DNA of 64,000 nt, taken from the IMG/VR virus record IMGVR_UViG_3300005264_000029, positions 1 to 64,000 of that record, one strand, 5' to 3'. Source of the stretch: a virus. Taxonomy: Duplodnaviria > Heunggongvirae > Uroviricota > Caudoviricetes. This document shows positions 535-15,400 of the stretch, one piece after another (position 1 is the stretch's first letter; every line of letters starts with the position of its first letter). The translations under genes were made by a program, and so were the position numbers. The notes beneath the pieces were generated by a model. That model ran no database searches, had not been told where the DNA came from, and saw only the letters and a list, made by a program, of their open reading frames with translations.

Positions 535-535
535 G

Positions 536-1995: not shown

Positions 1996-2023
1996 TATTT
2001 ATAACACCAAATATAGTTATAAA

Positions 2024-2245: not shown

Positions 2246-3621
2246 TAGGATGGATTATTTTAGCAGGATTTATTGGATTGATGGTTATTGTATTAATGTC
2301 ATTACATAGAATTGTTAGACCAAGCGAAGCACATTTAATTGTTAGAGCTTCAGGAGTAACAGGAGTATATTCTGCAACTAAAAAATTTAGAACAGATAAT
2401 GCCGGAACATCATATTTTCTAATTCCTGAATTTATTCCACACTTTGGAATGACTATTACACACCTAGATGTAACAATTAAGGAATTAAACTTTGAACAAA
2501 ACACTGTTGAACAAGACCAAGCAGAATATATTATTTCATCTTCTACTAAATATAGAACTGTTGATGCACAAAAAAATGCAGAGTCAATTCTTAGTGGTGA
2601 GGATTTAGCAGGACAATTAAAAGATATTGTACAAGCAGCTGTTAGACAAGTTACAGGTAAATATGATATTGTAAAAGCGAGATCGGAAAGAGAAGAAATT
2701 GCTACAAAAATTCAAACAGCTATTGGAAAAGATTTTGAAAGTTGGGGAGTGGAATTGGTTAATTTTGTACTTATCGATTTTAAAGATGTTGAAAATAAAA
2801 CAGTTATTCAAGATATTTCTAAGAGAAGAGAAATGGAAATTCATTCTACTACAAGAATTCAAAATGCTGCAAAGGATCAAGCTGCAAGAATGAAAGAAGC
2901 TGAAGCGGATGAAAAAGCTAAAGAGAGAGAAATTGAAAGGGACAAAGTTGTTGAAGAAAGAAAGCAAGAGATGGCCCAAGCAATTGCAGAAAAAGAAAAA
3001 GTAGCTCAAGAGAAAGCATTTGAAGTGATTAAAGTACAAACAATTAAACAAGCAGAGATTACAAAAGATGCTGCAATTGTAAAAGCCGAAGAGGATAAAA
3101 AAGTAGCTATTGTAAAAGCTCAACAACAAAAGGAAGCTGAAACTATTCTTAAAGAACAAAAGAGATTAGAGGGAGAAGGTGATAAACTTAAAGCTGAAGC
3201 TATTGCTAAAGGAGAAGCTGCACCTATTAGAGAAATGGGTAATGCTGAGGCAGAAATCATTTTAAAGAAATTAGTTGCTGAAGCTAAAGGTAAAGAAGAT
3301 TTACAAAAAGCACTTAATAAATTTACACCATCGGCAATCAATGCACTTACAGCAGAGTTACAAATTGAAGCTAATAAAGATGTAGGAATTGCAGGAGCTA
3401 AAGCGTTAGAACAATCAGAGATGAAAGTATTTTCAGGAAGTGATAATGGTGGAGGATTCGATACAGGAAAAGTATTAGCACAAATTGGAGTATCTAATTC
3501 AGGATTAGAAAATGCCATGCTTAATAAAACTGCAAGACCACAAGATTTAGGATTTACAGCACTTCAATTAAAGGATATGTATGATGAACAACAAAAAGTT
3601 GAACAATCATCCAATAAATAA
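2242..3621 (+). CDS. SPFH/band-7 (flotillin-like) membrane protein with long E/K/A-rich coiled coil
   Basis: N-terminal TM helix, SPFH-like core (...IVRASGVTGVYSA...FEQNTVEQDQAEYIISS...), then about 200 aa EA/KE-rich heptads typical of flotillins. Confidence 0.6.
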   Translation: MIGWIILAGFIGLMVIVLMSLHRIVRPSEAHLIVRASGVTGVYSATKKFRTDNAGTSYFLIPEFIPHFGMTITHLDVTIKELNFEQNTVEQDQAEYIISSSTKYRTVDAQKNAESILSGEDLAGQLKDIVQAAVRQVTGKYDIVKARSEREEIATKIQTAIGKDFESWGVELVNFVLIDFKDVENKTVIQDISKRREMEIHSTTRIQNAAKDQAARMKEAEADEKAKEREIERDKVVEERKQEMAQAIAEKEKVAQEKAFEVIKVQTIKQAEITKDAAIVKAEEDKKVAIVKAQQQKEAETILKEQKRLEGEGDKLKAEAIAKGEAAPIREMGNAEAEIILKKLVAEAKGKEDLQKALNKFTPSAINALTAELQIEANKDVGIAGAKALEQSEMKVFSGSDNGGGFDTGKVLAQIGVSNSGLENAMLNKTARPQDLGFTALQLKDMYDEQQKVEQSSNK

Positions 3622-3624
3622 AAG

Positions 3625-3681
3625 ATGAAAATCGAGAACAAAGTTCAAGTTATGAACGGAGCGAAGAGAAGTGAATATTAG
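3625..3681 (+). CDS. 18-aa leader mini-ORF (MKIENKVQVMNGAKRSEY) overlapping GTG start of next gene
   Basis: paralogous to 19176..19232 (MVMKIENEVRVLNGVVAK); conserved at nt level. Confidence 0.25.
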   Translation: MKIENKVQVMNGAKRSEY

Positions 3682-4360
3682 TAAGGTAATATTAATTTAC
3701 TTACTATTATTCTTCGGAGTTGTTGGTGCATTTTATTTTCCATATGATATATTTGAAAGTGACGAATCTACATTGGTTATTGATGATATAAAAATATATG
3801 ATAGAGCATTAACTCCTGAGGAAATTCAAGAAGAATTATATACTACAAATACATCACATAACGATGGAACATTGAACGATAAAGAATTTAATGATGGTTT
3901 AGTATATCATGAATCATTCGAAGAACAATTATTACCAAGTAATTTAACAGGTAGTGAAATATCTATATTATCTGAAGAAGCACGAATAGTGTCGATTATA
4001 AATAGTTGGTTTCCTATATTGTTTGGAATGATGTTCCTTATAGTTTTTGTAAATGCATTGACTAGAACAATTTCACCTAGTGCCAATAGGGATTCAGAAG
4101 ATGATGATAATGAAGAAGATTCCGATGAAGACGAAATTGAATGTTTAGAATGTTTAGAGTGTGGTATAGAGTATGAAAAGGAAGATAGTAATGCTACAAG
4201 ATCTGATAGATTCTGTTCAAGAACTTGCGAGAATGAATCTGAGATAGATCCAGATTATTATAATTGTGAAAGTTGTGATAGAGAGTATTATGTAAATGAT
4301 TCTAATGCAAATGATAAAATATCTTATTGTTGTAGAACTTGTGAGAAAAATGACGAATAA
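3671..4360 (+). CDS. membrane-anchored acidic protein with LamG C-terminal-motif fragment and two FCS-like zinc ribbons
   Basis: GTG start; 'IDDIKIYDRALTPEEIQEELY' matches the LamG repeat end-motif of the giant proteins; 'CLECLECG...FCSRTC' and 'CESC...YCCRTC'. Confidence 0.5.
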   Translation: MNISKVILIYLLLFFGVVGAFYFPYDIFESDESTLVIDDIKIYDRALTPEEIQEELYTTNTSHNDGTLNDKEFNDGLVYHESFEEQLLPSNLTGSEISILSEEARIVSIINSWFPILFGMMFLIVFVNALTRTISPSANRDSEDDDNEEDSDEDEIECLECLECGIEYEKEDSNATRSDRFCSRTCENESEIDPDYYNCESCDREYYVNDSNANDKISYCCRTCEKNDE

Positions 4361-4483
4361 AAGTAGTGAAGAGGTAATACAAGTAAGTACATGTAATCTA
4401 TCGAGTTGGAGAAAAAAAGAACTTATTAAGTTCTTACATCAACATAGATATTCTTGGGAAGAAGTAATAATTGATTAATAAAA

Positions 4484-4723
4484 ATGGCACATAAAACAAC
4501 GATACAATATATAGAAAAGATATCTAAAGATTTTCCTAATGGGCAATATTTTAAAGTTAAAGTTAATCCTCAGACAACTGGAGGATTTTGGAGTATTGAA
4601 ATTGATTGTTCTGAAAGGACACATGTGATAAAAGAAATAGAGCATTTTAGTAGATTTGTCGGACATATGTTTGGGGAGAATGTATGTATGGATGTTAAAA
4701 ATAATATATTAAAAATTTGGTAA
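4484..4723 (+). CDS. hypothetical protein (79 aa)
   Basis: ORF track. Confidence 0.4.
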   Translation: MAHKTTIQYIEKISKDFPNGQYFKVKVNPQTTGGFWSIEIDCSERTHVIKEIEHFSRFVGHMFGENVCMDVKNNILKIW

Positions 4724-4729
4724 AAACAA

Positions 4730-4749
4730 TAAGTTTATAAATACTTAAG
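4730..4749 (+). promoter_or_regulatory. class-A promoter 'AAGTTTATAAATACTTAAGT'
   Basis: 28 nt upstream of ligase ATG; 'GGGTGAAACGAAATG' SD region follows. Confidence 0.5.
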
Positions 4750-4777
4750 TATTAATATAATTAATGGGTGAAACGAA

Positions 4778-6157
4778 ATGGATACTGAGCTATTAGAAAA
4801 AATAAAGAATACTCCTGGAACAAATGATAAGATCTTTTTATCAGTAACAGGATTTAAAGATGATGAACATTTGTACATGACTGAATGTTTTAGTAAGAAA
4901 ATATATGGAATAGCAAAAACAAGTATTGCAAAAGCTATTGGATATGATAAAGAACATTATGGAACATTTGAAGATCTAGGAGAATTCTTAATTACAAGAC
5001 CACTTGGAGGATATGATGTTTTATCTTCTGAAGATTCTGATTATAGCTTAACTGATTTAAATAAGTTCTTAGATGGTCTAGAAAATATATCAGGTGATGA
5101 TCAAATTAATGAATTACAGAATAGATTAATTAAAGTAGACCCTTTATATAGACCTTATTTTGTAAGAGTGTTACTTAAGGATCCTAGGATGGGAATATCA
5201 TTAAAGACATATAATTCTATTAGGATTAAATCTAAGTTGAAACCTATTAAAGTACATATTGTAAAATTAGCTGAGTTACTTGAAACATCTATTCCACCAA
5301 AACCTGATGATTTTGCTAAATTAAGTTTTCCTGTATATGAAGAAAATAAAGAGGATGGAATCAGAATTTTGGTTGAATACAAGAATAAAACCGTTAAGTT
5401 AACTTCAAGAGACGGTAATGATATTACAGTGCAATATCCTGAGATAGTTAAATATACTAAAGGATTATTTGATTATTATAATGATGTAGATTCTATTACT
5501 CTTGATGGTGAAATCGTGTCATCTAGTTTCAATGCTTTACAAAAAAGAATGAACCGACTTGAGGGAAATTTAAATATAGATTTTGATCTTAAATTAGTAA
5601 CATACGATATTACTGAGATCAATGGAAAGGATTTAATTGATTTTCCATTAGCTGATAGAAGGTTACAATTAGAGACAATCAATAAATTAATGCCCGAGTT
5701 TATATTAAGTGAAATGATTGTTTGTAATACTAAGGAAGAAATATATGAACTTTTTAAAAAAGCAATTGATAATAAGGAAGAAGGTATAATGCTTAAATCA
5801 CCAAAATCTAAATGGGCAAAGAAAAAAGATGATAGAAAGGATTGGTGGAAGGTAAAGGATATTCGTGAAAATACATTTGAAATTGTTGATTTAGATTATG
5901 GTAATGGTAAGAACAAAGATGTTTTCACAATTGTATATGTAAAGGATAAAACAGGTAATATTAATTCAAAGGTTAGTGGTGGGTTATCAGATGCTGATAA
6001 AAAAACATTAACCGAAAAAGGAAAAGAATATTGGATTGGTAAATGTGTTGATATTCAATATAATCAAATAACATCTAAGAACTCTCTTAGACATCCTAGA
6101 ATAATTAAATTCCGGTTTGATAAAACTGTTGCAGATACTATAGAAAATGATGATTAG
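4778..6157 (+). CDS. ATP-dependent DNA ligase
   Basis: motif I 'KEDGIRIL' (KxDGxR), III 'LDGEIV', IV 'EGIMLK', V 'WWKVK'. Confidence 0.85.
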   Translation: MDTELLEKIKNTPGTNDKIFLSVTGFKDDEHLYMTECFSKKIYGIAKTSIAKAIGYDKEHYGTFEDLGEFLITRPLGGYDVLSSEDSDYSLTDLNKFLDGLENISGDDQINELQNRLIKVDPLYRPYFVRVLLKDPRMGISLKTYNSIRIKSKLKPIKVHIVKLAELLETSIPPKPDDFAKLSFPVYEENKEDGIRILVEYKNKTVKLTSRDGNDITVQYPEIVKYTKGLFDYYNDVDSITLDGEIVSSSFNALQKRMNRLEGNLNIDFDLKLVTYDITEINGKDLIDFPLADRRLQLETINKLMPEFILSEMIVCNTKEEIYELFKKAIDNKEEGIMLKSPKSKWAKKKDDRKDWWKVKDIRENTFEIVDLDYGNGKNKDVFTIVYVKDKTGNINSKVSGGLSDADKKTLTEKGKEYWIGKCVDIQYNQITSKNSLRHPRIIKFRFDKTVADTIENDD

Positions 6158-6497
6158 TAAAAAGACCAGAAAATATTTAATGTTAGATACTTGGCAGAAT
6201 AAATTATTATTTATTCCAAGAGTTATTTTATATTCATTAGTATTTATAGGTGGAGCTGTAATAGTTTTATGGTTTTGGATAATGAATAAATTATTAGGCG
6301 AAGAATGATGAAATATACAATAAAAATACAAAGGGTTAATTTGAACATACAAAGTAGAATTACTATACACTTGGAGTATAGCAGAGGAATAATCAAACGT
6401 TGTGTTAACATCAACAATACGATAATTAAGCAAGTATTTAGATACTTGAATAGTGAGATAGTACATTATACAAAGAATTAGACTAAGTTAAATAAAA

Positions 6498-6734
6498 ATG
6501 AAAATAGATAAAAAAATTATTGAAAAATCAAAAGAATTTAAAGTTTATTTAAAACAAAAAGAATATTTTATAAACAAATTTAATAATAAAGAATTAACTA
6601 ATTTAGATTTAATTAATTTAATAATTGAAGAAAGAATAATGAGATTCGAAACTTATAGAAAATATGTAGAACAAAGAAAAAAGAGAATAAATTTAAGTAA
6701 AAAATTAAATAAAATTAATGCGACAATTAATTAG
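6498..6734 (+). CDS. mini-gene array member (78 aa)
   Basis: ORF track; ends ...TIN* inside junction motif AATTAGATTAAGACAAATG. Confidence 0.45.
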   Translation: MKIDKKIIEKSKEFKVYLKQKEYFINKFNNKELTNLDLINLIIEERIMRFETYRKYVEQRKKRINLSKKLNKINATIN

Positions 6735-6744
6735 ATTAAGACAA

Positions 6745-6972
6745 ATGGAAAAAATAAATAAATATGAAATAACAAATAATACTAATAATTATGCTCTAGG
6801 TTATGAAGAATCAGAAAATGGAAAATGGTTAAAAGTTGAAGATGTTGAAAAAAGATTATTAGAAATAAAATCAAGAGTTTGTACTTGTGAATTTCCTGAA
6901 TCTATTTGGAATTGTCATGGGTGTAGGATAATTGAAGAATTATTTGGAAAAATCGAAGATACAATCAATTGA
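6745..6972 (+). CDS. array member, CxxC...CxxC zinc ribbon (75 aa)
   Basis: ATG inside junction motif; 'CTCEFPESIWNCHGC'. Confidence 0.45.
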   Translation: MEKINKYEITNNTNNYALGYEESENGKWLKVEDVEKRLLEIKSRVCTCEFPESIWNCHGCRIIEELFGKIEDTIN

Positions 6973-6988
6973 ATTAAGACAAATAAAA

Positions 6989-7195
6989 ATGGTAAAAATA
7001 AATAAAAGAGAATGTGATAAGTGCGAAACATTAGAAAATGTATCAACCTATAGTAAAGATTCAGAGAGTTATGATTTATGTGCTAATTGTTTAAAAGAAA
7101 ATATTTTTTATCAATTAGGAGCTAAAAAAATACTTGAAGATATAAAATATGATTTAAATGAATTAGTTGAAGACTATGAGGATACTTACAATTAG
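6989..7195 (+). CDS. array member, zinc ribbon (68 aa)
   Basis: 'CDKCETL...CANC'; ends ...TYN*. Confidence 0.45.
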   Translation: MVKINKRECDKCETLENVSTYSKDSESYDLCANCLKENIFYQLGAKKILEDIKYDLNELVEDYEDTYN

Positions 7196-7207
7196 ATTAA
7201 GTTAAAT

Positions 7208-7405
7208 ATGGCAGAAAAATATACTAAAACTTGGTGTTGTGTTTGTGGTAAAGAAACAATTCATACATATAAAATAAGGCATGGGCATAATCAACAAGAA
7301 ATGAAAAAAGCTCAAAAAGAATTACTTGAGGAATACTTTAAATTTGAAAGAAAAGATAGAAATTCTTTTATGATTTCAGAATTAAACAAACTTTCAAACA
7401 ATTAG
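7208..7405 (+). CDS. array member, zinc ribbon, C-term ...KLSNN (65 aa)
   Basis: 'CCVCGKE'; 5' 104 bp duplicated at 7794-7897. Confidence 0.45.
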   Translation: MAEKYTKTWCCVCGKETIHTYKIRHGHNQQEMKKAQKELLEEYFKFERKDRNSFMISELNKLSNN

Positions 7406-7408
7406 AAA

Positions 7409-7513
7409 ATGACAAAAGGAAAAAAAGTATATTTAACAGAAGAACAAGCACTTGAATTAATTGAATTAAGGCAAAAATTAAATTTAGAAAAAAATTTAAG
7501 TGGAATAGAATAA
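7409..7513 (+). CDS. array member (34 aa); duplicated at 10644
   Basis: 102 bp identical to 10644-10745. Confidence 0.35.
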   Translation: MTKGKKVYLTEEQALELIELRQKLNLEKNLSGIE

Positions 7514-7663
7514 ATCCTGAAAAGATACAAATATATAATTTAATATATACTAGAGCTCAAAAAGAATTACTTATGTCAATACTTTTACATAAAAAAAACA
7601 ACACTCTTGATAAATTTATAAATAAAAAAATAAAAGAATTAGAGTTAGACAATTAATTAGAAG

Positions 7664-7786
7664 ATGACACAAGAAGAAAAACAACATTTAATAACATTAT
7701 ACGAGGGAGATGCAATTAAAATAAATTGTGAAAAAGAAATTAAAAACTTCTTAGTTCTTAATGGGAGATTAAGAGAAACAAATTAG
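7664..7786 (+). CDS. array member (40 aa)
   Basis: ATG after 'AATTAATTAGAAG'; ends ...ETN*. Confidence 0.3.
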   Translation: MTQEEKQHLITLYEGDAIKINCEKEIKNFLVLNGRLRETN

Positions 7787-7812
7787 TTTCAATCAATTAG
7801 ATTAAGTTAAAT

Positions 7813-7914
7813 ATGGCAGAAAAATATACTAAAACTTGGTGTTGTGTTTGTGGTAAAGAAACAATTCATACATATAAAATAAGGCATGGGCATAATCACA
7901 ATCAATTAGATTAA
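7813..7914 (+). pseudogene. truncated duplicate of gene 7208..7405 (first 28 codons identical)
   Basis: 7794-7897 identical to 7189-7292, then diverges into junction motif. Confidence 0.5.
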
Positions 7915-7925
7915 GTTAAATAAAA

Positions 7926-8156
7926 ATGACAAAAGATAGAGATATAAGTTGGAATAAAGATATGGGAAATACAATGTTAAATTTAGCAGATAATGAATGG
8001 ATAACTTTCACAGTAAAAGGAAAAAATATGATTATAATGAACAATTCCAAATTTAATACTATGAAAGAAGAATTGCCAAATAAAAATAAATTGAAATCAA
8101 GAATTCAAAAACTAGAAAGGGAAATAGTAAGAAAAAAACAAGACGATGTGAGTTAA
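7926..8156 (+). CDS. array member (76 aa)
   Basis: ORF track. Confidence 0.4.
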   Translation: MTKDRDISWNKDMGNTMLNLADNEWITFTVKGKNMIIMNNSKFNTMKEELPNKNKLKSRIQKLEREIVRKKQDDVS

Positions 8157-8183
8157 AAAACTCAGAATACAATTAATTAGACA

Positions 8184-8363
8184 ATGAAAATTAGTAATAC
8201 ATTTAGAAAAAGTATTCAAGAAAGATGTTATGAAAATGAATCTGGAAGAATTATAGTTCCTACAGATATTTTAAATAAGTTCATTAAAGAAACAAACCAA
8301 GAAAATGAACTTAGAGGTCTGGTGAGAGGTCAAATAATAGATATTGCTAGAGGAGACAAATAA
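8184..8363 (+). CDS. array member (59 aa)
   Basis: ATG in 'AATTAGACAATG'; stop in junction motif. Confidence 0.35.
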   Translation: MKISNTFRKSIQERCYENESGRIIVPTDILNKFIKETNQENELRGLVRGQIIDIARGDK

Positions 8364-8377
8364 TTAGATTAAGACAA

Positions 8378-8527
8378 ATGATAGAAACAATAGATACGGT
8401 TGAAACAATAACAACAGACAAAGGAACTTATAAAGTTCATACTGATTGTTATAATCAAATTAGAAAAGAAGCTCAAAAAGAATTACTTGAAGAATTAAAA
8501 AATGGAAAAAGAAATAAAAATAAATAA
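8378..8527 (+). CDS. array member (49 aa), contains 'AQKELLEE' box shared with 7208 gene
   Basis: ATG inside junction motif. Confidence 0.35.
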   Translation: MIETIDTVETITTDKGTYKVHTDCYNQIRKEAQKELLEELKNGKRNKNK

Positions 8528-8615
8528 ATTAAGAGATAAAGGATTCTGTTATTTTGAGATTGCAGGAATTTTAGAATTAACATTAGAAGAAGTTAAAAAA
8601 CTTTCAAACAATTAG
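8502..8615 (+). CDS. array member (37 aa) ending ...VKKLSNN
   Basis: overlaps previous in another frame; conserved C-terminal 'AACTTTCAAACAATTAG'. Confidence 0.3.
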   Translation: MEKEIKINKLRDKGFCYFEIAGILELTLEEVKKLSNN

Positions 8616-8625
8616 ATTAAGACAA

Positions 8626-8802
8626 ATGAAAAATATAAAACTAAATAATCAAGAAATAAAAGATTTAATTTATGCAATAGATAATCAAGATTATTTAATT
8701 AATGATGAATTAGAATTAAATTTTTATTCAGAAAAAGAGGGTACGAGATTAAGTGATAGTTTATTAAATATTCGTACAAAAATCAATGCGACAGATAATT
8801 AG
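8626..8802 (+). CDS. array member (58 aa)
   Basis: ATG inside junction motif; ends ...TDN*. Confidence 0.35.
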   Translation: MKNIKLNNQEIKDLIYAIDNQDYLINDELELNFYSEKEGTRLSDSLLNIRTKINATDN

Positions 8803-8810
8803 ATTAAGAA

Positions 8811-9014
8811 ATGGTAATGAAAGAATATAAACAAAGTGTGGTTGTAATGAATTTTATTTCAGACCAATCAAATGAAGATATTGAAACAATGATTCAAGAG
8901 TTTTATATAAAACATCAAAAAAAAAAAATGATTGGAATGAATGTATTAAATTTAAAAGATAATATAAATAAATTTCCACAAATTAAAAGAATTTGTGAAG
9001 ATACAAGCAATTAG
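8811..9014 (+). CDS. array member (67 aa)
   Basis: ORF track; ends ...TSN*. Confidence 0.4.
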   Translation: MVMKEYKQSVVVMNFISDQSNEDIETMIQEFYIKHQKKKMIGMNVLNLKDNINKFPQIKRICEDTSN

Positions 9015-9215
9015 ATGATGAAACCAAAAAATAAAATATTAAAACATTTGAAAGAATTAACATTATGTTATTGTCCATCTAAAAAAGATAAATGTTATAA
9101 TTGTGGTTCTGAAAATTGTATATTATATAGGAAAGATATGAGAGATAATCCAAGTGTAACTCAATGGTATTTTTGTAATGATTGTACTATTGAATATTTG
9201 GATACTTATAATTAG
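9015..9215 (+). CDS. array member, Cys-rich zinc ribbon (66 aa)
   Basis: 'CYCPSKKDKCYNCGSENC...CNDC'. Confidence 0.4.
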   Translation: MMKPKNKILKHLKELTLCYCPSKKDKCYNCGSENCILYRKDMRDNPSVTQWYFCNDCTIEYLDTYN

Positions 9216-9307
9216 AAAATGGATACAGAAAAAAAAAAGAAAAAATAGATATATTAAAAGGATATATAAACATTGCAAAACTTGATTCTAAATATTATCA
9301 AAAGAAA

Positions 9308-9373
9308 ATGGAATACTGTTTAGAAGAACAAAAAATTTATGAATCTGAATTAAACGAACTTTCAAACAATTAA
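9308..9373 (+). CDS. array member (21 aa) ending ...ELSNN
   Basis: shares C-terminal box; may be remnant. Confidence 0.2.
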   Translation: MEYCLEEQKIYESELNELSNN

Positions 9374-9376
9374 AAA

Positions 9377-9511
9377 GTGGATAGATTAGAAGAAATTATG
9401 TGTATCATTTGTATGTTTAGAAATGATAGAGATTTAAGTAACGAGCAATTCGCAATTAAAATTGATGAATTTGAAAAAGAAATTAGAAAATTAAAACTTT
9501 CAAACAATTAG
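9377..9511 (+). CDS. array member ending ...KLKLSNN (GTG start; alt ATG 9398)
   Basis: 'CIICMF'; conserved C-terminal box. Confidence 0.3.
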   Translation: MDRLEEIMCIICMFRNDRDLSNEQFAIKIDEFEKEIRKLKLSNN

Positions 9512-9514
9512 ACG

Positions 9515-9676
9515 ATGAAACAAGAAATTAAAGGTATATTGAAAACAATAGATATTTTAGATTTAAATTTAAAAAATTTAGAATTAAATCATCGACAAGA
9601 AAGTTATGCTTATTACTACTTTGAAAATTGTAAAGAAGAATGTTTAAATGAAGTAAAAAAATTAGAGGACAATTAA
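9515..9676 (+). CDS. array member (53 aa)
   Basis: ATG in 'ATTAGACGATG'; ends ...EDN*. Confidence 0.35.
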   Translation: MKQEIKGILKTIDILDLNLKNLELNHRQESYAYYYFENCKEECLNEVKKLEDN

Positions 9677-9683
9677 TTAGAAA

Positions 9684-9860
9684 ATGGATAAAAAAGAAAC
9701 GACAACTAAAGAAAAAGAATTATTGGACCACTTAGAATTAGCATGGGGAATTATTGCTAATGCAAATAATGGAAACTGGGAAGAGTTACCTAAAGATTGG
9801 GTAAACGCGGCTGAAAACTGGAGAGATAAATATTATAAAGATATTCTTTCAGATAATTAG
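9684..9860 (+). CDS. array member (58 aa)
   Basis: ATG in 'ATTAGAAAATG'; ends ...SDN*. Confidence 0.35.
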   Translation: MDKKETTTKEKELLDHLELAWGIIANANNGNWEELPKDWVNAAENWRDKYYKDILSDN

Positions 9861-9870
9861 AATTTGACAA

Positions 9871-10020
9871 ATGGAAATAGATAAAGAAGAATTACAATAT
9901 ATGATGATGGAAAATTGGGCATTAGAAAATAATGAAGATTGTCATTTAGCAACAGTACAATTCTGCGATAAATGGGGAATTAATTTAGATGAAATTAATA
10001 TGCGTAGAGAATACATTTAA
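9871..10020 (+). CDS. array member (49 aa)
   Basis: ATG in 'TTGACAAATG'. Confidence 0.35.
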   Translation: MEIDKEELQYMMMENWALENNEDCHLATVQFCDKWGINLDEINMRREYI

Positions 10021-10034
10021 TTAGATTAAGACAA

Positions 10035-10262
10035 ATGATAGATGAAGAAAAAATAAAAATGTATGAATCTGAATTATTCCGAATGTCTGGGATATTTTTT
10101 ATTCAAGGAATATTATGTGCAATTAGTATGTTTGGATTATGTTTAACATTATTAAAAAATATTACTTATTGGTATATTTTTATAATTCCAATATTTATTA
10201 TATTTTTAATATTACAAAATTTAGAAAAAATAATACTAAAAAATGAGAATGCAAATAATTAG
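10035..10262 (+). CDS. array member, two-TM membrane protein (75 aa)
   Basis: ORF track; ends ...ANN*. Confidence 0.4.
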   Translation: MIDEEKIKMYESELFRMSGIFFIQGILCAISMFGLCLTLLKNITYWYIFIIPIFIIFLILQNLEKIILKNENANN

Positions 10263-10265
10263 AAA

Positions 10266-10481
10266 ATGGATTTAGCAAACAAATTAACAGAATTATTTGA
10301 AACAGACCTAGAGAAATTTATTGAATTACATGATAAAAATAAATTGAAATTTATTAAAAATAATGATAAATTAAGAAATGACTATAAACAATTAAAAAGA
10401 AATTTCACTCCTGATATGAATTTAAAGTTTTTAATAAACTTACAAAAACATATTGCAAAAATCAAGACGACAAACAATTAG
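10266..10481 (+). CDS. array member (71 aa)
   Basis: ORF track; ends ...TNN*. Confidence 0.4.
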   Translation: MDLANKLTELFETDLEKFIELHDKNKLKFIKNNDKLRNDYKQLKRNFTPDMNLKFLINLQKHIAKIKTTNN

Positions 10482-10484
10482 AAA

Positions 10485-10631
10485 ATGACAGAATATGAAA
10501 TAAAAATAGAAATAAAAGAAAATGAAATATTTTCAAGAAGTATTGAAGGTACAATTATAATCAATTCAGCATTAGCTAGAAAAGAAGTTGGAAATGTAAT
10601 AGTTGATAGAATTAAAAAAACTTTCAAATAA
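10485..10631 (+). CDS. array member (48 aa)
   Basis: ends ...KKTFK* with 'AACTTTCAAATAATTAA' box variant. Confidence 0.3.
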   Translation: MTEYEIKIEIKENEIFSRSIEGTIIINSALARKEVGNVIVDRIKKTFK

Positions 10632-10643
10632 TTAAATAGAGAA

Positions 10644-10772
10644 ATGACAAAAGGAAAAAAAGTATATTTAACAGAAGAACAAGCACTTGAATTAATTGAA
10701 TTAAGGCAAAAATTAAATTTAGAAAAAAATTTAAGTGGAATAGAAATTATTATCTTCTTGAGGATAAATTAA
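10644..10772 (+). CDS. array member (42 aa), duplicate of 7409 gene with different tail
   Basis: 102-bp identity to 7409-7510. Confidence 0.3.
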   Translation: MTKGKKVYLTEEQALELIELRQKLNLEKNLSGIEIIIFLRIN

Positions 10773-10785
10773 ATGGAATTTAAAA

Positions 10786-10965
10786 ATGCCTGATTTAATA
10801 ATTGAGAAAGCAATGTCGTATCCAATTGATGATGTATTTCATTATGATTTAGAATTAAAATGTAATTTCAAAAAAGATAAGATGACAACAAAAGAGTGGG
10901 ATAAATTTGATGAAATAAGATGGAAAATAATGGAGATCAATAATCTATTTAGGGAGTTAAAATAA
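10786..10965 (+). CDS. hypothetical protein (59 aa)
   Basis: ATG-to-stop frame; adjacent to next gene. Confidence 0.35.
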   Translation: MPDLIIEKAMSYPIDDVFHYDLELKCNFKKDKMTTKEWDKFDEIRWKIMEINNLFRELK

Positions 10966-10966
10966 A

Positions 10967-11092
10967 ATGCCAGTGTTAATATGTAGTAATTGTAGTAGAC
11001 AAGTAAGAGATAGTTTTCATGAAGAACCTATCAAGCACCCTAGATTAAAGGATGGATGGTGTAACTGTAGCGATAAGTTTATAAAGACTTAA
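10967..11092 (+). CDS. small zinc-ribbon protein (41 aa)
   Basis: 'CSNCSRQ...CNCSDKF'. Confidence 0.35.
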   Translation: MPVLICSNCSRQVRDSFHEEPIKHPRLKDGWCNCSDKFIKT

Positions 11093-11113
11093 CTGTTTAT
11101 ATATATTATCAAG

Positions 11114-11314
11114 ATGGAAAAAGAAGTAAGAGAGAAAATTAAAAGTTTTATAGAAACATATCCAGAGGATATGCGATACAATGTTAAATTAGGGAACTGT
11201 GTCGCACTAATGGAATGGTCCTGGTCACAATCACAAAAGGAAATTCTAAAAACGAGTGAAAAATTTGGGTACATTACTTCTGAACAAATCGAGAAGATCA
11301 TAGCTAATAAATGA
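11114..11314 (+). CDS. hypothetical protein (66 aa)
   Basis: ORF track. Confidence 0.4.
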   Translation: MEKEVREKIKSFIETYPEDMRYNVKLGNCVALMEWSWSQSQKEILKTSEKFGYITSEQIEKIIANK

Positions 11315-11469
11315 AAAATAAATTTTATTATTTGAAAGATAAAGATAACAATATAAAAATCTCACCTGTTACAAAAGAGTATCCAATGTTTTGGAATACT
11401 AAAGGTCGTGCTGAAAATTATGCAAAAAAACATGCTAAAGATTATACAGTATTTGAAATACAATTGTGA
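11311..11469 (+). CDS. hypothetical protein (52 aa)
   Basis: ATGA overlap with previous. Confidence 0.35.
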   Translation: MKNKFYYLKDKDNNIKISPVTKEYPMFWNTKGRAENYAKKHAKDYTVFEIQL

Positions 11470-11472
11470 AAA

Positions 11473-11619
11473 ATGGGAATTAAAAATGAATTAAGTATTT
11501 GTGTTATGTGTAAGGAACTTAAGAATCTACCAGTAGGTAGAGTTACATGTGGATCAATGTGTGCTAAGAAATATAGATTATTAAACACAATCGAAAAAAG
11601 AGAATTATTATATAAATAA
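11473..11619 (+). CDS. FCS-like zinc-finger mini-protein (48 aa)
   Basis: 'CVMCKEL...TCGSMCAKKYR' matches family at 23851/27232. Confidence 0.4.
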   Translation: MGIKNELSICVMCKELKNLPVGRVTCGSMCAKKYRLLNTIEKRELLYK

Positions 11620-11621
11620 AC

Positions 11622-11933
11622 ATGGAGCTAAATAAAAAAGATTTACTATCGAACGATTTCAAAGAATATAAGGATAACCATTTCCAAAAAAGAGTATGGG
11701 AAGGGTCTAATACAAAATATTTTATAAATGTTGAATATTATGAGTTCGATGCATCAGGCATTACGTATAAATCGTTCGAGTGTAAGGTACAATTCATGCA
11801 CGCAGTATATAATAAGAAAGACATCTGTTACAATTATGATTTTAACTGTTCTGAATTTACCATTAAAGAAATTGAAGGTATCGTTGAAAAATTATTTATA
11901 GATGCAAATAAACCATATTACAATAAGGAGTGA
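11622..11933 (+). CDS. hypothetical protein (103 aa)
   Basis: ORF track. Confidence 0.45.
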   Translation: MELNKKDLLSNDFKEYKDNHFQKRVWEGSNTKYFINVEYYEFDASGITYKSFECKVQFMHAVYNKKDICYNYDFNCSEFTIKEIEGIVEKLFIDANKPYYNKE

Positions 11934-12172
11934 ATAAAAAAATGAAACAAGAAAAAGATAATGATTATATATCAGAAGCAAAAAGATTAAGATCGCAAAT
12001 AGCGCAGGGACAACTATCAGTTAATGATTTAGTTGGAATGATAGTTGATTCAAAAAAACAAATAGATTTTTATAAAGTTAGATGTGTAGAAATTAAAAAA
12101 GAATTAAATGAATTAGAATGTGATTATCAAGAAATGGTAGATCATCATGATACGGAAAAAAATGAAAGCTAA
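11930..12172 (+). CDS. hypothetical protein (80 aa), coiled-coil
   Basis: ORF track; ATGA coupling. Confidence 0.45.
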   Translation: MNKKMKQEKDNDYISEAKRLRSQIAQGQLSVNDLVGMIVDSKKQIDFYKVRCVEIKKELNELECDYQEMVDHHDTEKNES

Positions 12173-12389
12173 AACAATACTTGATTGTTCAGACCAAAAA
12201 AAGAAGGTCAGGTTTTTAAATTCGTTTAGTAATTTGATATTTAAATATCAGGATGAATTAGGATGTTCATATCGAGATATGCTTGAGTTTACAAAAAAGA
12301 AAATAGAAGCGGATTTATTATTTGCTACAAAAGATGGATCTATTAATTATAATTTGGAAGAAAAAAGAAATGCATGTAAAATGAAATAG
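12162..12389 (+). CDS. hypothetical protein
   Basis: ORF 12147..12389; internal ATG 12162 chosen to reduce overlap. Confidence 0.4.
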   Translation: MKAKTILDCSDQKKKVRFLNSFSNLIFKYQDELGCSYRDMLEFTKKKIEADLLFATKDGSINYNLEEKRNACKMK

Positions 12390-12390
12390 A

Positions 12391-12678
12391 ATGATATTTA
12401 ATAAGAAAGCTGGAATAGTAGGAGATATAACAATTGTAATATTAATATTATTCATTGTAGGATATATATTATTGCCAACTGTAATGTATGAAGATGATGA
12501 TTCTGGATTTACTAAATATGGATGTATTTTTATAAAACCGCAATACAATGAATCGGGGCCGGCTAGAAGTTGCTTTACAAAACATTGGAATTCATACTGT
12601 AGAGAAATAGCGCCAAGTGATTGCCCTGATTATAATGCAAATCAAAGTAAATCATATAATCAATATAATAAAAAATGA
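12391..12678 (+). CDS. membrane-anchored Cys-containing protein (95 aa)
   Basis: ORF track; N-terminal TM helix. Confidence 0.4.
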   Translation: MIFNKKAGIVGDITIVILILFIVGYILLPTVMYEDDDSGFTKYGCIFIKPQYNESGPARSCFTKHWNSYCREIAPSDCPDYNANQSKSYNQYNKK

Positions 12679-12749
12679 ATGTCCGAAAGCAAAGCTTGAG
12701 GTTATGAATGAAGTCCAAATGAAACAACGTGTAGAGAGGAACGAACGAA

Positions 12750-13124
12750 ATGAATGTAACTGATACAATAACAATGCAAGTGTACGATGATGTAAAATCG
12801 TTTTTAGTGGATGCTGGACAAATAGCAGCAGATGGAGCAACTCAGGGATTTGAGATAATGGTCATGAAACATTTCTGGGTTGATGGTGTAGTTACACTAA
12901 TATTATCTATTATAGGAATGATAGCATGGATATTCTTTTTTATTAAATGGATTAAAATATTAAAAGAATCGAGGGAAGATGTATTTATAAGTGCAGCAAT
13001 GTTTGGTGGAATGATATTAGTAATGTCACTTATAGGATTAATATCTGCCTTATATAGTGGAGCAGCAAATGTATTTATTCCTGAGTATTATGCTATCATG
13101 GATATAATTGAAGTTGTCAAATGA
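12750..13124 (+). CDS. two/three-TM membrane protein (124 aa)
   Basis: ORF track; hydrophobic segments. Confidence 0.45.
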   Translation: MNVTDTITMQVYDDVKSFLVDAGQIAADGATQGFEIMVMKHFWVDGVVTLILSIIGMIAWIFFFIKWIKILKESREDVFISAAMFGGMILVMSLIGLISALYSGAANVFIPEYYAIMDIIEVVK

Positions 13125-13318
13125 GACACACTGGAAAGAAACCGGTAATTGATTATATCGAACATGCTATCTATGCTATCTCTAGAGATATGTTAAAAAT
13201 TAAAAAAGGAGTTAGAATAATTGATGGTATTAATGATAGTAAGAAATTGTTTAATATTAAAATGCAATTAAAAAACTGTCGTGATGATTATAATCGAAGT
13301 CGAGAAAAAAAGATTTAA
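13121..13318 (+). CDS. hypothetical basic protein (65 aa)
   Basis: ORF track. Confidence 0.4.
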   Translation: MRHTGKKPVIDYIEHAIYAISRDMLKIKKGVRIIDGINDSKKLFNIKMQLKNCRDDYNRSREKKI

Positions 13319-13334
13319 AAGATTTAAAAAGTAT

Positions 13335-13628
13335 TTATTTAAAAATACTTATAAGTCCAAATGCTGCAAGTACAATAATTCCTACTGCAATTAAAGCAAA
13401 TCCTGCGAACACAGTTGTTTGAGTACTTGCTACTCCGTCAACATATCCTGTATCATCCATTGTTAAGGATGTATTATCTACACATGGAGCAACTACTGGT
13501 CCTCCTAAACATGCATTATCTATTTGTGGAGTTGGTAATGCGTCTTTTACTTTAGCTATAACTAAATATCCGATCATAATTACTATTCCGATTCCTATTG
13601 CCGCGATGGCTATTTCCATAAATACCAT
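13335..13628 (-). CDS. small hydrophobic two-helix protein; candidate spindle-virus-type major capsid protein (VP1/VP3-like), paralog A
   Basis: N-term 'MVFMEIAIAAIGIGIVIMIGYLVIA' and C-term 'FAGFALIAVGIIVLAAFGLISIFK' are nearly identical to 13788..14015; fold class inferred. Confidence 0.45.
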   Translation of the reverse strand: MVFMEIAIAAIGIGIVIMIGYLVIAKVKDALPTPQIDNACLGGPVVAPCVDNTSLTMDDTGYVDGVASTQTTVFAGFALIAVGIIVLAAFGLISIFK

Positions 13629-13662
13629 TTTTATATGATATTAATATTATAGCACTTACTCT

Positions 13663-13710
13663 TTATATATGTAATTATTTATGACCACTAGATAATAATT
13701 ACATATATAA
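13663..13710. promoter_or_regulatory. bidirectional class-B promoter: perfect 18-bp inverted repeat TTTATATATGTAATTATT / AATAATTACATATATAAA
   Basis: lies between divergent paralogs; same motif upstream of minus-strand structural genes at 59940, 60556. Confidence 0.55.
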
Positions 13711-13787
13711 ACCTCCAGCGATATAACTTACTATCCTGAGAGAGGAGATGTAAAAATCTTCGCACTCTATAACGGTATTAAATTAAA

Positions 13788-14015
13788 ATGGTATTCATGG
13801 AAATCGCAATCGCAGCTATTGGAATCGGAGTGGTTCTAATGGTAGGTTACTTAGTTGTAGCTCAAGTTAAAGCAGCATTACCAACAGAAAGTTTGGATAA
13901 TGAAACAATTGATGGAATTAATTCCGCGCAAACAACTGTTTTCGCAGGTTTTGCATTAATCGCAGTTGGAATTATTGTTCTAGCAGCATTCGGTCTAATC
14001 AGTATTTTTAAATAA
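13788..14015 (+). CDS. small hydrophobic two-helix protein; candidate major capsid protein, paralog B
   Basis: 75 aa; shares N- and C-terminal helices with 13335..13628. Confidence 0.45.
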   Translation: MVFMEIAIAAIGIGVVLMVGYLVVAQVKAALPTESLDNETIDGINSAQTTVFAGFALIAVGIIVLAAFGLISIFK

Positions 14016-14029
14016 ATACTCTTTTGGCT

Positions 14030-15400
14030 TTTCACAATTCAAACTAAAGGTTTATAAACACTTAATTATTAATATTTCTTAATGACAAAAACTTCTTTAA
14101 AAGTTAGATTGCGAATCAACAAATATAAATACAATATTCTAAAAACATTATGTTTACATTCTAAAAATCTTTATAATCAAGCGAATTATTTAATACAACA
14201 ATATTATAAATATACTGGAAAATATTTAACTTATTATGATATGTATTATATTATGCGAAATCGTGAAAATTTAGAACATGAAATTAATTTTAAAAAATTA
14301 AAATCTGGTGTATCGCAACAAGTACTAATGATACTAGATACAAATTGGAAAGCATATTTTAGAAGTGTTAACGATTGGAAAAAAAATAAATCAAAATATA
14401 ATGGGTTACCAAAACCGCCTGGATATATAAAAGAATATAATAATTTAGTGTATACATATGTGGTATTTCAAAATAAAAATAAATATATTCAGTTGGAAAA
14501 AAAATTAGGAATAAACATAGATATACCAAAACAATTAATAAATAAAAATATAAAACAAATAGAAATAATTTCACGACGAGAATGTTTTGAAGCTGTGTTT
14601 GTGTATGATGACGCAGTAAAGTATAAACAAATTGAAAAGAATGATAATGTATTAGGAATTGATTTAGGATTAAATAATATAGCTACTTGTGTCAGTAATA
14701 ATATAAAACCGTTTGTAATTAATGGTAAACCGTTAAAATCAATAAATCAATATTCTAATAAAAAAATAGCAAAAACTAAAAGTTGCTTGGAACATAGGAA
14801 TACCGTTAAGACAAGTAAGAAGATTATACAATTATATTATAAACGTAATAATAAAATTAGTGATTATTTGCATAAGGCTAGTAGACTAATAGTTAATAAG
14901 TGCGTGGAGAATAATATCTCCAAAGTAATCGTTGGTGATATAAGTAAATCACTTACCAAGATTAATCTTGGTAAAAGAAACAATCAAAATTTCATAAATA
15001 TCTCATTAGGCCAGTTTGTTGATAAAATAAAATACAAACTTGAGAAGCACAATATTAAAACAATTATAACTAATGAGAGTTATACATCAAAGTGTTCATT
15101 CATTGATAATGATACACTTCCACAGAAATTAGATACCAGTAAGAAATTTGTATTTAGTGGTAAAAGAATTAAACGTGGAATGTATAGAACTAAGAATAAT
15201 ATCTTAATAAATGCTGATGTGAATGGTGCTTATAATATAATTAGAAAAGTAATACCAAAGTTTGATATTAATTTATTAAAGGATGGTATAGAGGGAGACA
15301 CTATGTGTCGTTGGTTACACCCACATAAATTAACTGTATAAGTTTACAGTCTTTATGGTATTCAAATATTATTTAAAACTAAAGGTTTATAAATAATTAA
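14030..15400 (+). mobile_element. IS200/IS605-family TnpB-only (IS1341-like) element or domesticated derivative
   Basis: TnpB ORF flanked by 'AAACTAAAGGTTTATAAA' at 14036 and 15374; no tnpA. Confidence 0.5.
14082..15341 (+). CDS. tnpB: TnpB/OrfB-like RuvC-fold protein; RuvC-II and zinc finger appear degenerate
   Basis: 'GIDLGLNNIATCV' (RuvC-I), 'NFINISLGQFVDKIKYKLEKHNIKTIITNESYTSKCS', 'NADVNGAYNIIRK' (RuvC-III); expected 'xEDL' reads 'VIVGDI' and only one Cys remains in the CxxC...CxxC region. Confidence 0.75.
   Translation: MTKTSLKVRLRINKYKYNILKTLCLHSKNLYNQANYLIQQYYKYTGKYLTYYDMYYIMRNRENLEHEINFKKLKSGVSQQVLMILDTNWKAYFRSVNDWKKNKSKYNGLPKPPGYIKEYNNLVYTYVVFQNKNKYIQLEKKLGINIDIPKQLINKNIKQIEIISRRECFEAVFVYDDAVKYKQIEKNDNVLGIDLGLNNIATCVSNNIKPFVINGKPLKSINQYSNKKIAKTKSCLEHRNTVKTSKKIIQLYYKRNNKISDYLHKASRLIVNKCVENNISKVIVGDISKSLTKINLGKRNNQNFINISLGQFVDKIKYKLEKHNIKTIITNESYTSKCSFIDNDTLPQKLDTSKKFVFSGKRIKRGMYRTKNNILINADVNGAYNIIRKVIPKFDINLLKDGIEGDTMCRWLHPHKLTV

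Follow-up and report, generated by a model that had tools for sequence, protein, structure and literature searches.

The 64,000-nucleotide window analysed here (positions 1 to 64,000 of IMG/VR record IMGVR_UViG_3300005264_000029) comes from an uncultured, very AT-rich virus-like element of 22-30% G+C. Downstream of an ATP-dependent DNA ligase gene, the region 6498-10772 (+ strand, 23% G+C, ~95% coding) holds an array of very small genes joined by a conserved nucleotide motif, which we term the linker. A first-pass annotation, made from the letters of the window, had described about 23 such mini-genes. The array stands, and the count must be revised, since the intact array comprises 26 genes (median 58 aa) and 25 junctions. 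This intact version is that of the second assembly described below, L019, and it is the one on which the junctions were aligned. The per-codon stop probability in 6498-10772 is 0.11 and an open reading frame (ORF) of at least 40 codons would arise by chance with a probability of only ~0.009, so that the unbroken chain of 37-78-codon ORFs represents real coding sequence.

The linker is a 17-nt asymmetric motif, CAAnYAATTAGAwwAwG (~19 bits), found on a single strand at 22 gene junctions between 6471 and 10641 and nowhere else in the 64 kb. The 19-mer AATTAGATTAAGACAAATG is present in four exact copies and in five others with at most three mismatches, all on the + strand between 6729 and 10037, when 0.29 would be expected. 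On the + strand of the array there are 24 copies of AATTAGA where 3.1 would be expected, and ACA-N3-AATTAG occurs 11 times in the array and on neither strand in the rest of the window. A core of AATTAG, AATTGA or AATTAA is present at 23 of the 25 junctions. Once the junctions are aligned on this core, C(-5) is found in 24/25 of them, to be compared with a background of 7.5% C, together with AATTA (25/25), G(+5) (21/25), A(+6) (24/25) and G(+11) (24/25). The conserved stop/start junction reported by the first-pass annotation is thus borne out, and its conservation extends well beyond a Shine-Dalgarno (SD)-like signal: the linker contains no SD, being devoid of GGAG, GAGG or AGGA, and an SD-like tetramer precedes 1/22 array genes versus 40/112 genes elsewhere (p = 0.002).

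Two forms of the linker can be distinguished. The final three bases of the short form, AATTAGAAAATG, are the start codon of the next gene. The long form, AATTAGATTAAG, is followed by ACAA-ATG, by TTAAAT-ATG, or by these with an additional ATAAAA, and its G(+11) is conserved although it lies outside any start codon. The long form offers TAG in one frame, TAA in another and the following ATG in the third. For example, GACAATTAATTAG is read as ...ACA ATT AAT TAG (TIN*) in gene g01 and as ...GAC AAT TAA (DN*) in genes D and g19, g11 and g21 close with TAA and are followed by the TTAG, and the linker at 8170-8186 is located wholly in a non-coding spacer. Because identical bases are read in two frames and the motif can lie after the stop or in a spacer, the junctions are conserved at the nucleotide level and not at the protein level. 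TAG serves as the stop codon of 14/26 array genes versus 5/111 genes elsewhere (p = 1.5e-8). Since a G-to-A change would keep the stop and follow the AT bias, the retention of G(+5) argues for selection on the sequence itself, and the fact that G(+5), G(+11) and C(-5) are all kept in a region of 23% GC points to selection against this bias.

Upstream of the core, otherwise unrelated genes have identical 3' ends of 12-18 nt, namely AAACTTTCAAAC (KLSNN*), GAxGATACxxxC (EDTxN*) and AATGyGACAxxx (NATxN*). The recurrence of KLSNN* C-termini, already noticed in the first reading of the window, amounts to four genes ending in AAACTTTCAAACAATTAG and two variants. These left halves (KLSNN, EDTxN and NATxN types) pair freely with short or long right halves. 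The position of the core is fixed relative to the upstream stop, and its distance to the ATG varies (0, 3, 8, 10, 12 or 16 nt). The stop-to-start spacing is 0-10 nt at 14 junctions, 12-16 nt at 8 and 26-27 nt at 2; the last of the 25 is a 26-nt overlap, that of g12 and g13, which is the single junction without a linker.

Layout and content of the array

All features of the locus are co-oriented on the + strand. A promoter-like motif, AAGTTTATAAATACTTAAGTATTAATATAATTAA (4731-4764), which is also the best TTTATA-16-TATAAT match, is the proposed start of a transcription unit whose first cistron encodes the ligase (4778-6157; Pfam and NCBIfam ligase domains), with an SD-like GGGTGA upstream. The start of u1 (6147-6308), a 53-aa membrane mini-protein, overlaps the ligase stop, and u2 (6305-6481, 58 aa) overlaps u1 through an ATGA and ends in the first linker, CAAAGAATTAGACTAAG (6471-6487). 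Then follow g01 (6498-6734, 78 aa), whose linker CAATTAATTAGATTAAG (6724-6740) is of the long form and leads to ACAA-ATG, g02 (6745-6972, 75 aa, four Cys) with a TGA core variant, CAATCAATTGAATTAAG (6962-6978), and the zinc-ribbon-like g03 (6989-7195, 68 aa) with CTTACAATTAGATTAAG (7185-7201).

In the next stretch the genes of the window and of L019 differ. A chimeric ORF seen in the window only (7208-7405) combines the N-terminal part of cassette A copy 1 with the C-terminal part of gene B and runs into a short-form linker, CAAACAATTAGAAAATG (7395-7411), with the ATG inside the 17-mer. Cassette C copy 1 (7409-7513) is truncated to 34 aa in the window (51 aa in L019), and the 3' part of gene D (7514-7656; 64 aa in L019) ends in CAATTAATTAGAAGATG (7650-7666). 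Gene E (7664-7786, 40 aa) is followed by CAATCAATTAGATTAAG (7790-7806), and cassette A copy 2 (7813-7914), truncated to 33 aa in the window (44 aa in L019), by the same sequence, CAATCAATTAGATTAAG, at 7899-7915.

Beyond it, g10 (7926-8156, 76 aa) precedes the non-coding linker CAATTAATTAGACAATG (8170-8186), which lies 13 nt past its stop. The linker of g11 (8184-8363, 59 aa) is CAAATAATTAGATTAAG (8357-8373), in which the upstream stop is TAA and the TTAG comes after. g12 (8378-8527, 49 aa), which contains the segment AQKELLEE, is overlapped by g13 (8502-8615, 37 aa), a helix-turn-helix (HTH)-like protein gene closed by CAAACAATTAGATTAAG (8605-8621). The series continues with g14 (8626-8802, 58 aa) and CAGATAATTAGATTAAG (8792-8808), with g15 (8811-9014, 67 aa) and CAAGCAATTAGATGATG (9004-9020), where the TAG abuts the ATG, and with g16 (9015-9215, 66 aa, seven Cys, zinc-ribbon-like) and CTTATAATTAGAAAATG (9205-9221). 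g17 (9219-9372), which ends ...ELSNN* ahead of the linker variant CAAACAATTAAAAAGTG (9363-9379), has a broken frame and is identical in L019. The break lies in an A10-G-A6 run (9229-9245), on which both assemblies agree; a one-base shift gives a protein of ~52 aa ending ELSNN*, and a homopolymer error, a pseudogene or slippage are each possible.

The distal part of the array comprises g18 (9377-9511; 44 aa from a GTG start, or 37 aa) with CAAACAATTAGACGATG (9501-9517), g19 (9515-9676, 53 aa) with CAATTAATTAGAAAATG (9670-9686), g20 (9684-9860, 58 aa) with the linker variant CAGATAATTAGAATTTG (9850-9866), g21 (9871-10020, 49 aa) with CATTTAATTAGATTAAG (10014-10030), the membrane protein gene g22 (10035-10262, 75 aa) with CAAATAATTAGAAAATG (10252-10268), g23 (10266-10481, 71 aa) with another CAAACAATTAGAAAATG (10471-10487), and g24 (10485-10631, 48 aa) with a degenerate linker, CAAATAATTAAATAGAG (10625-10641). 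The last ORF of the region (10644-10772) is again a chimera found in the window only, made of cassette C copy 2 and the tail of g26 (51 and 46 aa in L019). The last cistrons of the proposed unit, x27 (59 aa) and x28 (41 aa, four Cys), occupy 10786-11092 and have ordinary junctions, one of them SD-like (GGGAG). The next copy of the promoter-like motif (11075-11108), the proposed end of the unit, stops 5 nt before an ATG at 11114.

The mini-proteins appear to be mostly unrelated orphans. In an all-against-all BLASTP of the array proteins, the full-length matches are A1=A2 and C1=C2 (both 100% protein identity); beyond these, the short segment AQKELLEE is common to B, D and g12, and the zinc-ribbon proteins g03 and g16 display a weak similarity. 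Because similarity is restricted to these cases, the array is not a diverged paralogue family, and the possibility of a tandem paralogue family was ruled out, its members not being homologous along their length. The remaining nucleotide self-matches of the array are limited to 20-60 nt at the junctions, and Tandem Repeats Finder detected no array-scale or long-period repeat in it.

Searches of the mini-proteins against PHROGs and Pfam gave weak matches only: the zinc-ribbon-like g03 to a Lar-like PHROG family and g10 to the transcription-regulator PHROG phrog_36 (E = 2.9e-4), with g13 being HTH-like. g20 retrieved only itself among 5.8 billion clusters. At least four Cys including a CxxC are present in five ORFs, four of them distinct, in agreement with the five or more zinc ribbons first proposed. 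Two membrane proteins had also been announced; g22 is the sole clear one within 6498-10772 (Kyte-Doolittle 19-residue maximum of 2.25), and the second, u1 (2.35), lies upstream of this range.

An exhaustive search with g10 yielded one outside homologue, P0031 (47 aa, 50% identity), which is encoded at 6001-6144 of an unrelated 44-kb phage-like contig (L266), among endonuclease VII, HNH and methylase genes. The two proteins have in common the pattern DISWN...MLNLxDxE...GKxMxIMNxSK. P0031 is the only outside homologue of any array gene and is preceded by an ordinary SD junction without a linker, which indicates that the linker is a property of the array and not of the genes.

In contrast to the SD-free array, a second block of ~45 co-oriented mini-genes (~29900-42500, 16-24% G+C) has stereotyped classical junctions, GAGG/GGAG-N5-9-TAA-AA-ATG. 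The 25 nt upstream of two adjacent genes at 22877-23146 (89 aa) and 23173-23394 (73 aa) are the same, ttacaacctaaaggatataagataaATG, and the pair may be a tandem duplication outside the array.

The array in two assemblies

The biosample of the window, SAMN06288063, also has an independent ENA assembly, in which the ligase protein led to a 126-kb scaffold, L019. It is 100% identical to window positions 23-15684 apart from four extra segments of 149, 113, 37 and 166 nt. The first (L019 12518-12666) is missing after window 7293/7294, where L019 has intact genes A (44 aa) and B (65 aa) with a normal linker between them; the second (L019 12885-12997) is missing after 7510, the third (L019 13386-13422) at 7898 and the fourth (L019 16275-16440) at 10745-10749. 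All affected frames are intact in L019, with A at 44 aa and C at 51 aa in both copies, B at 65 aa, D at 64 aa and g26 at 46 aa. Every missing segment starts at the same relative position inside a copy of cassette A or C, that is, in genes and not in linkers.

Similar differences occur outside the array. Compared with the ENA scaffold, the window lacks 156 nt at 55406/55407 and 101 nt at 50293/50294, the latter loss splitting a single Laminin_G_3 protein of 4353 aa into ORFs of 2510 and 1750 aa. A region of 69-nt tandem repeats at 43.4-43.9 kb also differs between assemblies (window 43370-43912, compared with L263 and L265). The overall bookkeeping gives ~200 nt missing between 15.7 and 51.3 kb, most of which may be accounted for by the 101-nt loss and a length difference of ~176 nt at 43370-43472. 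Over the ~45 kb aligned, there are at least seven indels, all beside repeats, and one substitution. Such an accumulation of repeat-adjacent indels with almost no substitutions argues for assembly error and not for divergence, and the fragments, truncations and chimeras of the window most likely arose in its assembly, the intact-gene version being the credible one. The Logan contig L020 ends inside cassette A, as expected at a repeat, and the chimeric protein of ORF 7208-7405 matches no database record. A look-up of gene E found a single assembly carrying it, and thus no third one by which to decide between the window and L019.

Two of the earlier proposals do not survive this comparison. The supposedly decayed fragment at 7514-7660 is an intact gene in L019, its window form being most likely an assembly defect, and the case for ongoing unequal recombination fails, since the truncations specific to the window break inside genes and not at the motif, with the indel pattern of assembly error. 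Repeat-rich arrays are easily damaged in assembly, and apparent gene decay in them needs to be checked against a second assembly.

Other repeats lie elsewhere in the window. At its left edge (1-131) there is a perfect 27-nt tandem repeat that is coding (EETNETEVV-like). The 69-nt tandem repeats at 43755-43975 are located in a 500-nt zone where + and - gene blocks converge and the GC skew changes sign, and this convergence zone could be a terminus or an origin-like region. Two neighbouring genes whose products have intein-splicing domains are found farther along the same scaffold (L263 253-2392), ~7.6-9.7 kb beyond position 64000 of the window.

Proposed transcription unit, relatives and possible host

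A 34-nt promoter-like motif, AGGTTTATAAAtACTTAAGTAnTTATATAAT, occurs at 1968, 4731, 11075, 14048, 15383, 21101, 26675, 32320 and 36100, all on the + strand, when 0.03 would be expected, with 0-45 nt between it and the ATG that opens a gene block. It differs from the linker and brackets the array at 4731 and 11075, with no copy in 4765-11074. Because promoter-like motifs lie at these two positions and none between, the array is best read, on the basis of motifs, as the body of one ligase-led transcription unit that would comprise the ligase gene, u1, u2, the mini-genes, x27 and x28. A TTTATAAA box is located ~27 nt before the ATGs that abut the 34-nt motif (0-5 nt; 14082, 21137 and 11114). This geometry would fit archaeal TATA-box promoters with leaderless mRNAs, and a bacterial -35/-10 reading fits too. 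In two related elements, L021 and L025, the ligase gene is likewise preceded by a comparable TTTATAAA...TATAA(A)T arrangement.

Between 4 and 13 kb, sigma-70-like sites are depleted (45 versus 73 expected from shuffles). None of the 45 matches coincides with a common linker form, and the single overlap concerns the variant linker 9850-9866 (TTGACA at 9864). A search for terminator-like sites in the array found none, and no Rfam family matched. Windows of 60 nt around the junctions fold less than gene interiors (mean minimum free energy of -3.1 versus -4.3 kcal/mol), and a conserved RNA structure at the junctions was rejected on account of this weak folding and of the lack of a common hairpin. 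Reassignment of TAG, or its read-through to fuse neighbouring genes, was likewise rejected: the long form meets an in-frame TAA, the frame relations of neighbours are inconsistent, and large genes are intact under the standard code. A link between the linker and a guide or target of the nearby TnpB was also dismissed, the flanks of tnpB holding the promoter-like motif and not the linker.

Five related elements, one from the same sample, were found through the ligase (L021, L023 and L025) and TatC (L261 and L262), at 46-69% identity. Their gene order agrees locally with that of the window (Hjc-like gene, SPFH, ligase), and at the corresponding places they carry different, non-homologous mini-genes with overlap or SD junctions. 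Both the AATTAG motif and homologues of the array genes are absent from all five. Since the relatives have other mini-genes there, the region downstream of the ligase gene is variable and hyperplastic in this virus group.

Wider scans point the same way as to the distribution of the linker. The DNA of the array matches none of 50,697 phage records, and the exact 19-mer has no match in IMG/VR. In JGI metagenomes it is found in 18 contigs, with one match each and no second approximate copy, as expected by chance. A 16-mer version gave 114 loci in IMG/VR and at least 120 in GTDB genomes, the loci listed being all single matches and none enriched for the relaxed motif. The linker array thus appears, so far, to be unique to one genome.

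The window also encodes TatC, SPFH, an Hjc-like resolvase, the ATP-dependent ligase, TnpB, a tyrosine recombinase, a Cas4-like nuclease and the giant Laminin_G_3 protein, and the relatives carry a family B polymerase. We lean tentatively towards an archaeal (DPANN-like) virus or plasmid. A TnpB search among GTDB genomes, as a clue to the host, returned no match. The genes for TatC and SPFH (Band-7), at 732-1436 and 2242-3621, are unusual viral cargo and are kept in L025, L261 and L262. Just upstream of the TnpB gene (14082-15341), itself flanked by copies of the promoter-like motif, two inverted paralogues (13335-13620 on the - strand and 13788-14015 on the + strand) encode a small two-helix membrane protein ending ...GLISIFK*. 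This C-terminus is conserved in L021, L023 and L025, so that the virus group may have in common a structural or membrane protein of this type.

Known linker systems and the possible role of the linker

We rate the array as resembling the repeat-linked orphan-gene regions of viruses and as a member of no named family. In behaviour it is closest to PeSLs, SAS and stoperators, yet it fails the defining features of each. The PeSLs of T4-type phages combine a sigma-70 consensus promoter with a G/C-rich stem-loop terminator and sit in real intergenic spacers (PMC2839356, PMC4122927). Like them, the linker is a short conserved motif between small orphan genes of a hyperplastic, non-structural region, in which regulatory and recombination roles would be combined and the repeat would offer the homology for duplicating, deleting or swapping single-gene cassettes. 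Unlike them, it has neither a sigma-70 promoter nor a stem-loop, overlaps the stop codon and lies inside an apparent single operon. Indels between close relatives of T4-type phages have their endpoints at PeSLs; the linkers also flank orphan genes and bound the internal duplicates, but the indels that separate the two assemblies have their ends elsewhere, and none of the relatives found carries the array.

The SAS/ESAS elements of Cluster K mycobacteriophages have the consensus GGGATAGGAGCCC with an SD core (AGGAG), lie 3-7 bp from the start codon, and are scattered in 11-19 copies over half a genome and conserved across the whole phage cluster; a role in translation is suspected (PMC3203893). 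They share with the linker the format of a short, asymmetric repeat in one orientation, found among non-structural genes of unrelated families, a few bases from starts and sometimes holding the upstream stop. The linker differs in that it lacks an SD, is anchored to the stop with a variable distance to the ATG, and marks nearly every junction of one 4.3-kb array in one genome.

Based on these observations, we tentatively favour, at a little short of even chances, a reading in which the linker is a per-cistron translational stop/restart coupler and cassette duplication a by-product of the repeats. Present once per cistron, the linker would most likely act on the mRNA. It would close the upstream ORF and present the following ATG 0-16 nt away, in A-rich, unstructured surroundings that contain no SD. 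Ribosomes finishing one mini-ORF would then restart on the next one (termination-reinitiation), the linker being read by the ribosome itself or recognized as a 17-mer by a factor. The ~25 direct copies would also give 20-45 nt of homology, through which ordinary homologous recombination would have copied cassettes A and C and swapped the 3' ends of genes. In this scheme we infer polycistronic transcription, reinitiation and the mechanism of recombination alike. A role at the level of translation fits better than one at the level of transcription, because the signal occurs once per cistron in one operon, runs in the direction of the genes and keeps a fixed position relative to the stop.

Ordinary coupled gene pairs have ATGA or TAATG overlaps and no conserved 17-mer. 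The array resembles them through its co-directional genes, its stop-to-start distances of 0-16 nt, a signal within the last ~15 nt of the upstream gene and the lack of an independent SD, and it differs from them in that its junctions are mostly at +3 to +16 and share a specific sequence. If coupled pairs are taken as co-directional genes on one inferred transcript with ~-8 to +10 nt from stop to start, the 14/25 junctions at 0-10 nt fall within this range. Termination-reinitiation coupling is known from genes that overlap or lie a short distance apart (PMC6728339, PMC10666635). Measurements in E. coli and Haloferax show efficient reinitiation up to ~+10, a drop of 40-80% near +13/14 and a loss beyond ~20-38 nt, and the final 15 nt of the upstream gene suffice as a signal (PMC10666635). 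The spacings of the array (14 at 0-10 nt and 8 at 12-16 nt) would place most of its junctions where reinitiation works or partly works.

Several points weigh against such a coupler. A specific 17-mer of ~19 bits is more than plain reinitiation should require, and the way in which C(-5), G(+5) and G(+11) are kept suggests a sequence-specific reader; we identified no factor that reads the 17-mer. A ribosome-binding element would not be expected to keep a fixed place relative to the upstream stop and a variable one, 0-16 nt away, relative to the ATG, as the core does. The spacers of 12-16 nt (eight junctions) and of 26-27 nt (two junctions) are in the range where reinitiation is inefficient in E. 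coli and Haloferax (PMC10666635). The motif is known from one genome only, which makes comparison impossible, and gene conversion (concerted evolution) alone could keep the copies alike.

The specificity of the 17-mer leaves room for a somewhat unlikely alternative, in which a dedicated trans-acting factor, protein or RNA, binds this site and controls the array genes as a set. A protein factor could be encoded within the array or close to it, as an HTH, AbrB-like or zinc-ribbon mini-protein, and the site would be either a translational operator on each cistron, like that of T4 RegA, or a DNA roadblock to transcription, like the stoperators of mycobacteriophages. The asymmetry and single orientation of the motif, its ~19 bits with rare G and C kept, and its anchoring to the stop and not to the start would all suit such a site, and its size and asymmetry recall the 13-bp stoperators and the SAS (PMC6550527, PMC3203893). 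Candidate nucleic-acid binders are present in the array (g10, the HTH-like g13 and several zinc ribbons), but no regulator emerged above threshold in the PHROGs and Pfam searches.

The stoperators of Cluster A mycobacteriophages occupy both genome arms, include true operators at promoters and are bound by a known repressor (PMC6550527, PMC9283540). They resemble the linkers as asymmetric, transcription-oriented sites of 13-17 bp, in 20-30 copies, located in tiny gaps by stop and start codons. The linkers, however, are all within 6471-10641, none lies at any of the nine promoter-like motifs and no repressor was found. The confinement of the sites to one operon thus contrasts with the genome-wide stoperator systems and their true operator, and ~25 DNA roadblocks in 4.3 kb of a single operon would be redundant. 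An operator acting at the RNA level is, by sequence alone, indistinguishable from the stop/restart coupler that we prefer.

The duplicated cassettes bear on the remaining alternatives. A1 and A2 are identical from CAATTAGATTAAGTTAAAT-ATG to the next linker, with one synonymous difference inside, and diverge just past the following ATG; C1 and C2 are 100% identical over the ORF, and their flanking linkers differ by indels. The internal duplicates first reported are therefore real, with limits of 7189-7294 = 7794-7898 and 7407-7510 = 10642-10745, and A and C are cassette-precise duplications bounded by linkers. Together with the free assortment of the linker halves, they argue for past exchange at or near the AATTAG core. 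Neither the duplicates nor the linker halves appear to imply that this exchange is catalysed; homologous recombination on repeats of 20-45 nt would be enough, as has likewise been proposed for PeSLs (PMC2839356).

These duplicates could also mean that the linkers have no function, being remains of serial small-gene duplication kept alike by short-tract gene conversion, with only the stop and start codons functional. The subfamilies of identical 3' ends in several genes, the AQKELLEE segment common to B, D and g12, and the fact that the relatives do without the motif would agree with this view as well as A1/A2 and C1/C2 do. We consider it improbable nonetheless, since the gene bodies are otherwise mutually unrelated, the outside homologue of g10 has no linker, and the motif is kept even in the non-coding spacer 8170-8186. 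It would also leave unexplained why G and C are kept against the AT bias, including TAG where TAA would serve and G(+11) where there is no ATG.

A dedicated cassette system, in which the AATTAG core would be the crossover site of a site-specific recombinase as in integrons, is if anything slightly more doubtful. As in integrons, the genes are co-oriented, small, promoterless and mostly orphan, each bounded by a conserved core around which the linker halves assort freely, and the duplicates of A and C are precise to the cassette. Unlike in integrons, the array has no imperfect-palindrome attC, no inverse core and no adjacent IntI, attI or Pc; we found no hairpin, inverse core or adjacent recombinase at the array, AATTAG has only two copies on its opposite strand, and its junctions are less structured than gene interiors. 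In favour of such a system, a tyrosine recombinase is encoded 9 kb downstream (19717-20661), but it is the only one and belongs to another transcription unit. It scores 26 bits against the integron-integrase model TIGR02249, far below the cut-off of 265, and its best match is archaeal XerA (52 of 220 bits). The differences between assemblies lie inside genes and not at the core, and the IMG/VR, JGI and GTDB scans listed only single chance matches to the site. The earlier idea of a cassette array that shuffles at the junction is thereby retained in part: the linker-bounded duplicates and recombined halves are there, and a recombinase or an attC-like structure is not. A linker placed once per cistron in an apparent single operon is what one would expect of a translational signal no less than of a dedicated shuffling site.

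Lastly, it is hardly credible that each linker is a host or virus-specific promoter giving each mini-gene its own transcription unit, as in PeSL or T7-type arrangements: an oriented motif of 17-20 nt before each ATG has the size of a single-subunit RNA polymerase promoter and TAGATT is loosely like a -10 element, but a transcript of the short form AATTAGAAAATG, starting the usual 5-9 nt past TAGAAA, would begin beyond the ATG, the core-to-ATG distance varies over 0-16 nt, sigma-70-like matches are depleted and off the common linker forms, and a different, well-conserved promoter-like motif occurs at nine other sites, two of which bracket the array.

Small orphan genes abound in the genomes of phages and archaeal viruses, where their expression, insulation from each other and turnover are poorly understood, and the known linker systems (PeSLs, SAS and stoperators) have each revealed a short repeat that couples regulation to genome plasticity. 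The array described here is an unusually clean case, since nearly every junction of a 26-gene block carries a motif that is neither an SD, a promoter nor a hairpin. A bolder possibility, which we regard as rather unlikely, is that the linker represents a new kind of viral translation element, a sequence-specific stop/restart signal that would rely on a viral or host factor or on rRNA contact and would allow SD-free translation of a 26-cistron orphan operon in an SD-using genome. If this were true, the gene set of the array would have its own translational regime, with for example immunity to an SD-targeting shut-off, and the repeat would make the operon a self-contained nursery into which new mini-genes are slotted in a frame-safe manner. 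A sequence-specific restart signal would also lend itself, as a compact natural part, to the construction of long SD-free polycistrons, and would offer a way into the translation of an uncultured, possibly archaeal, host.

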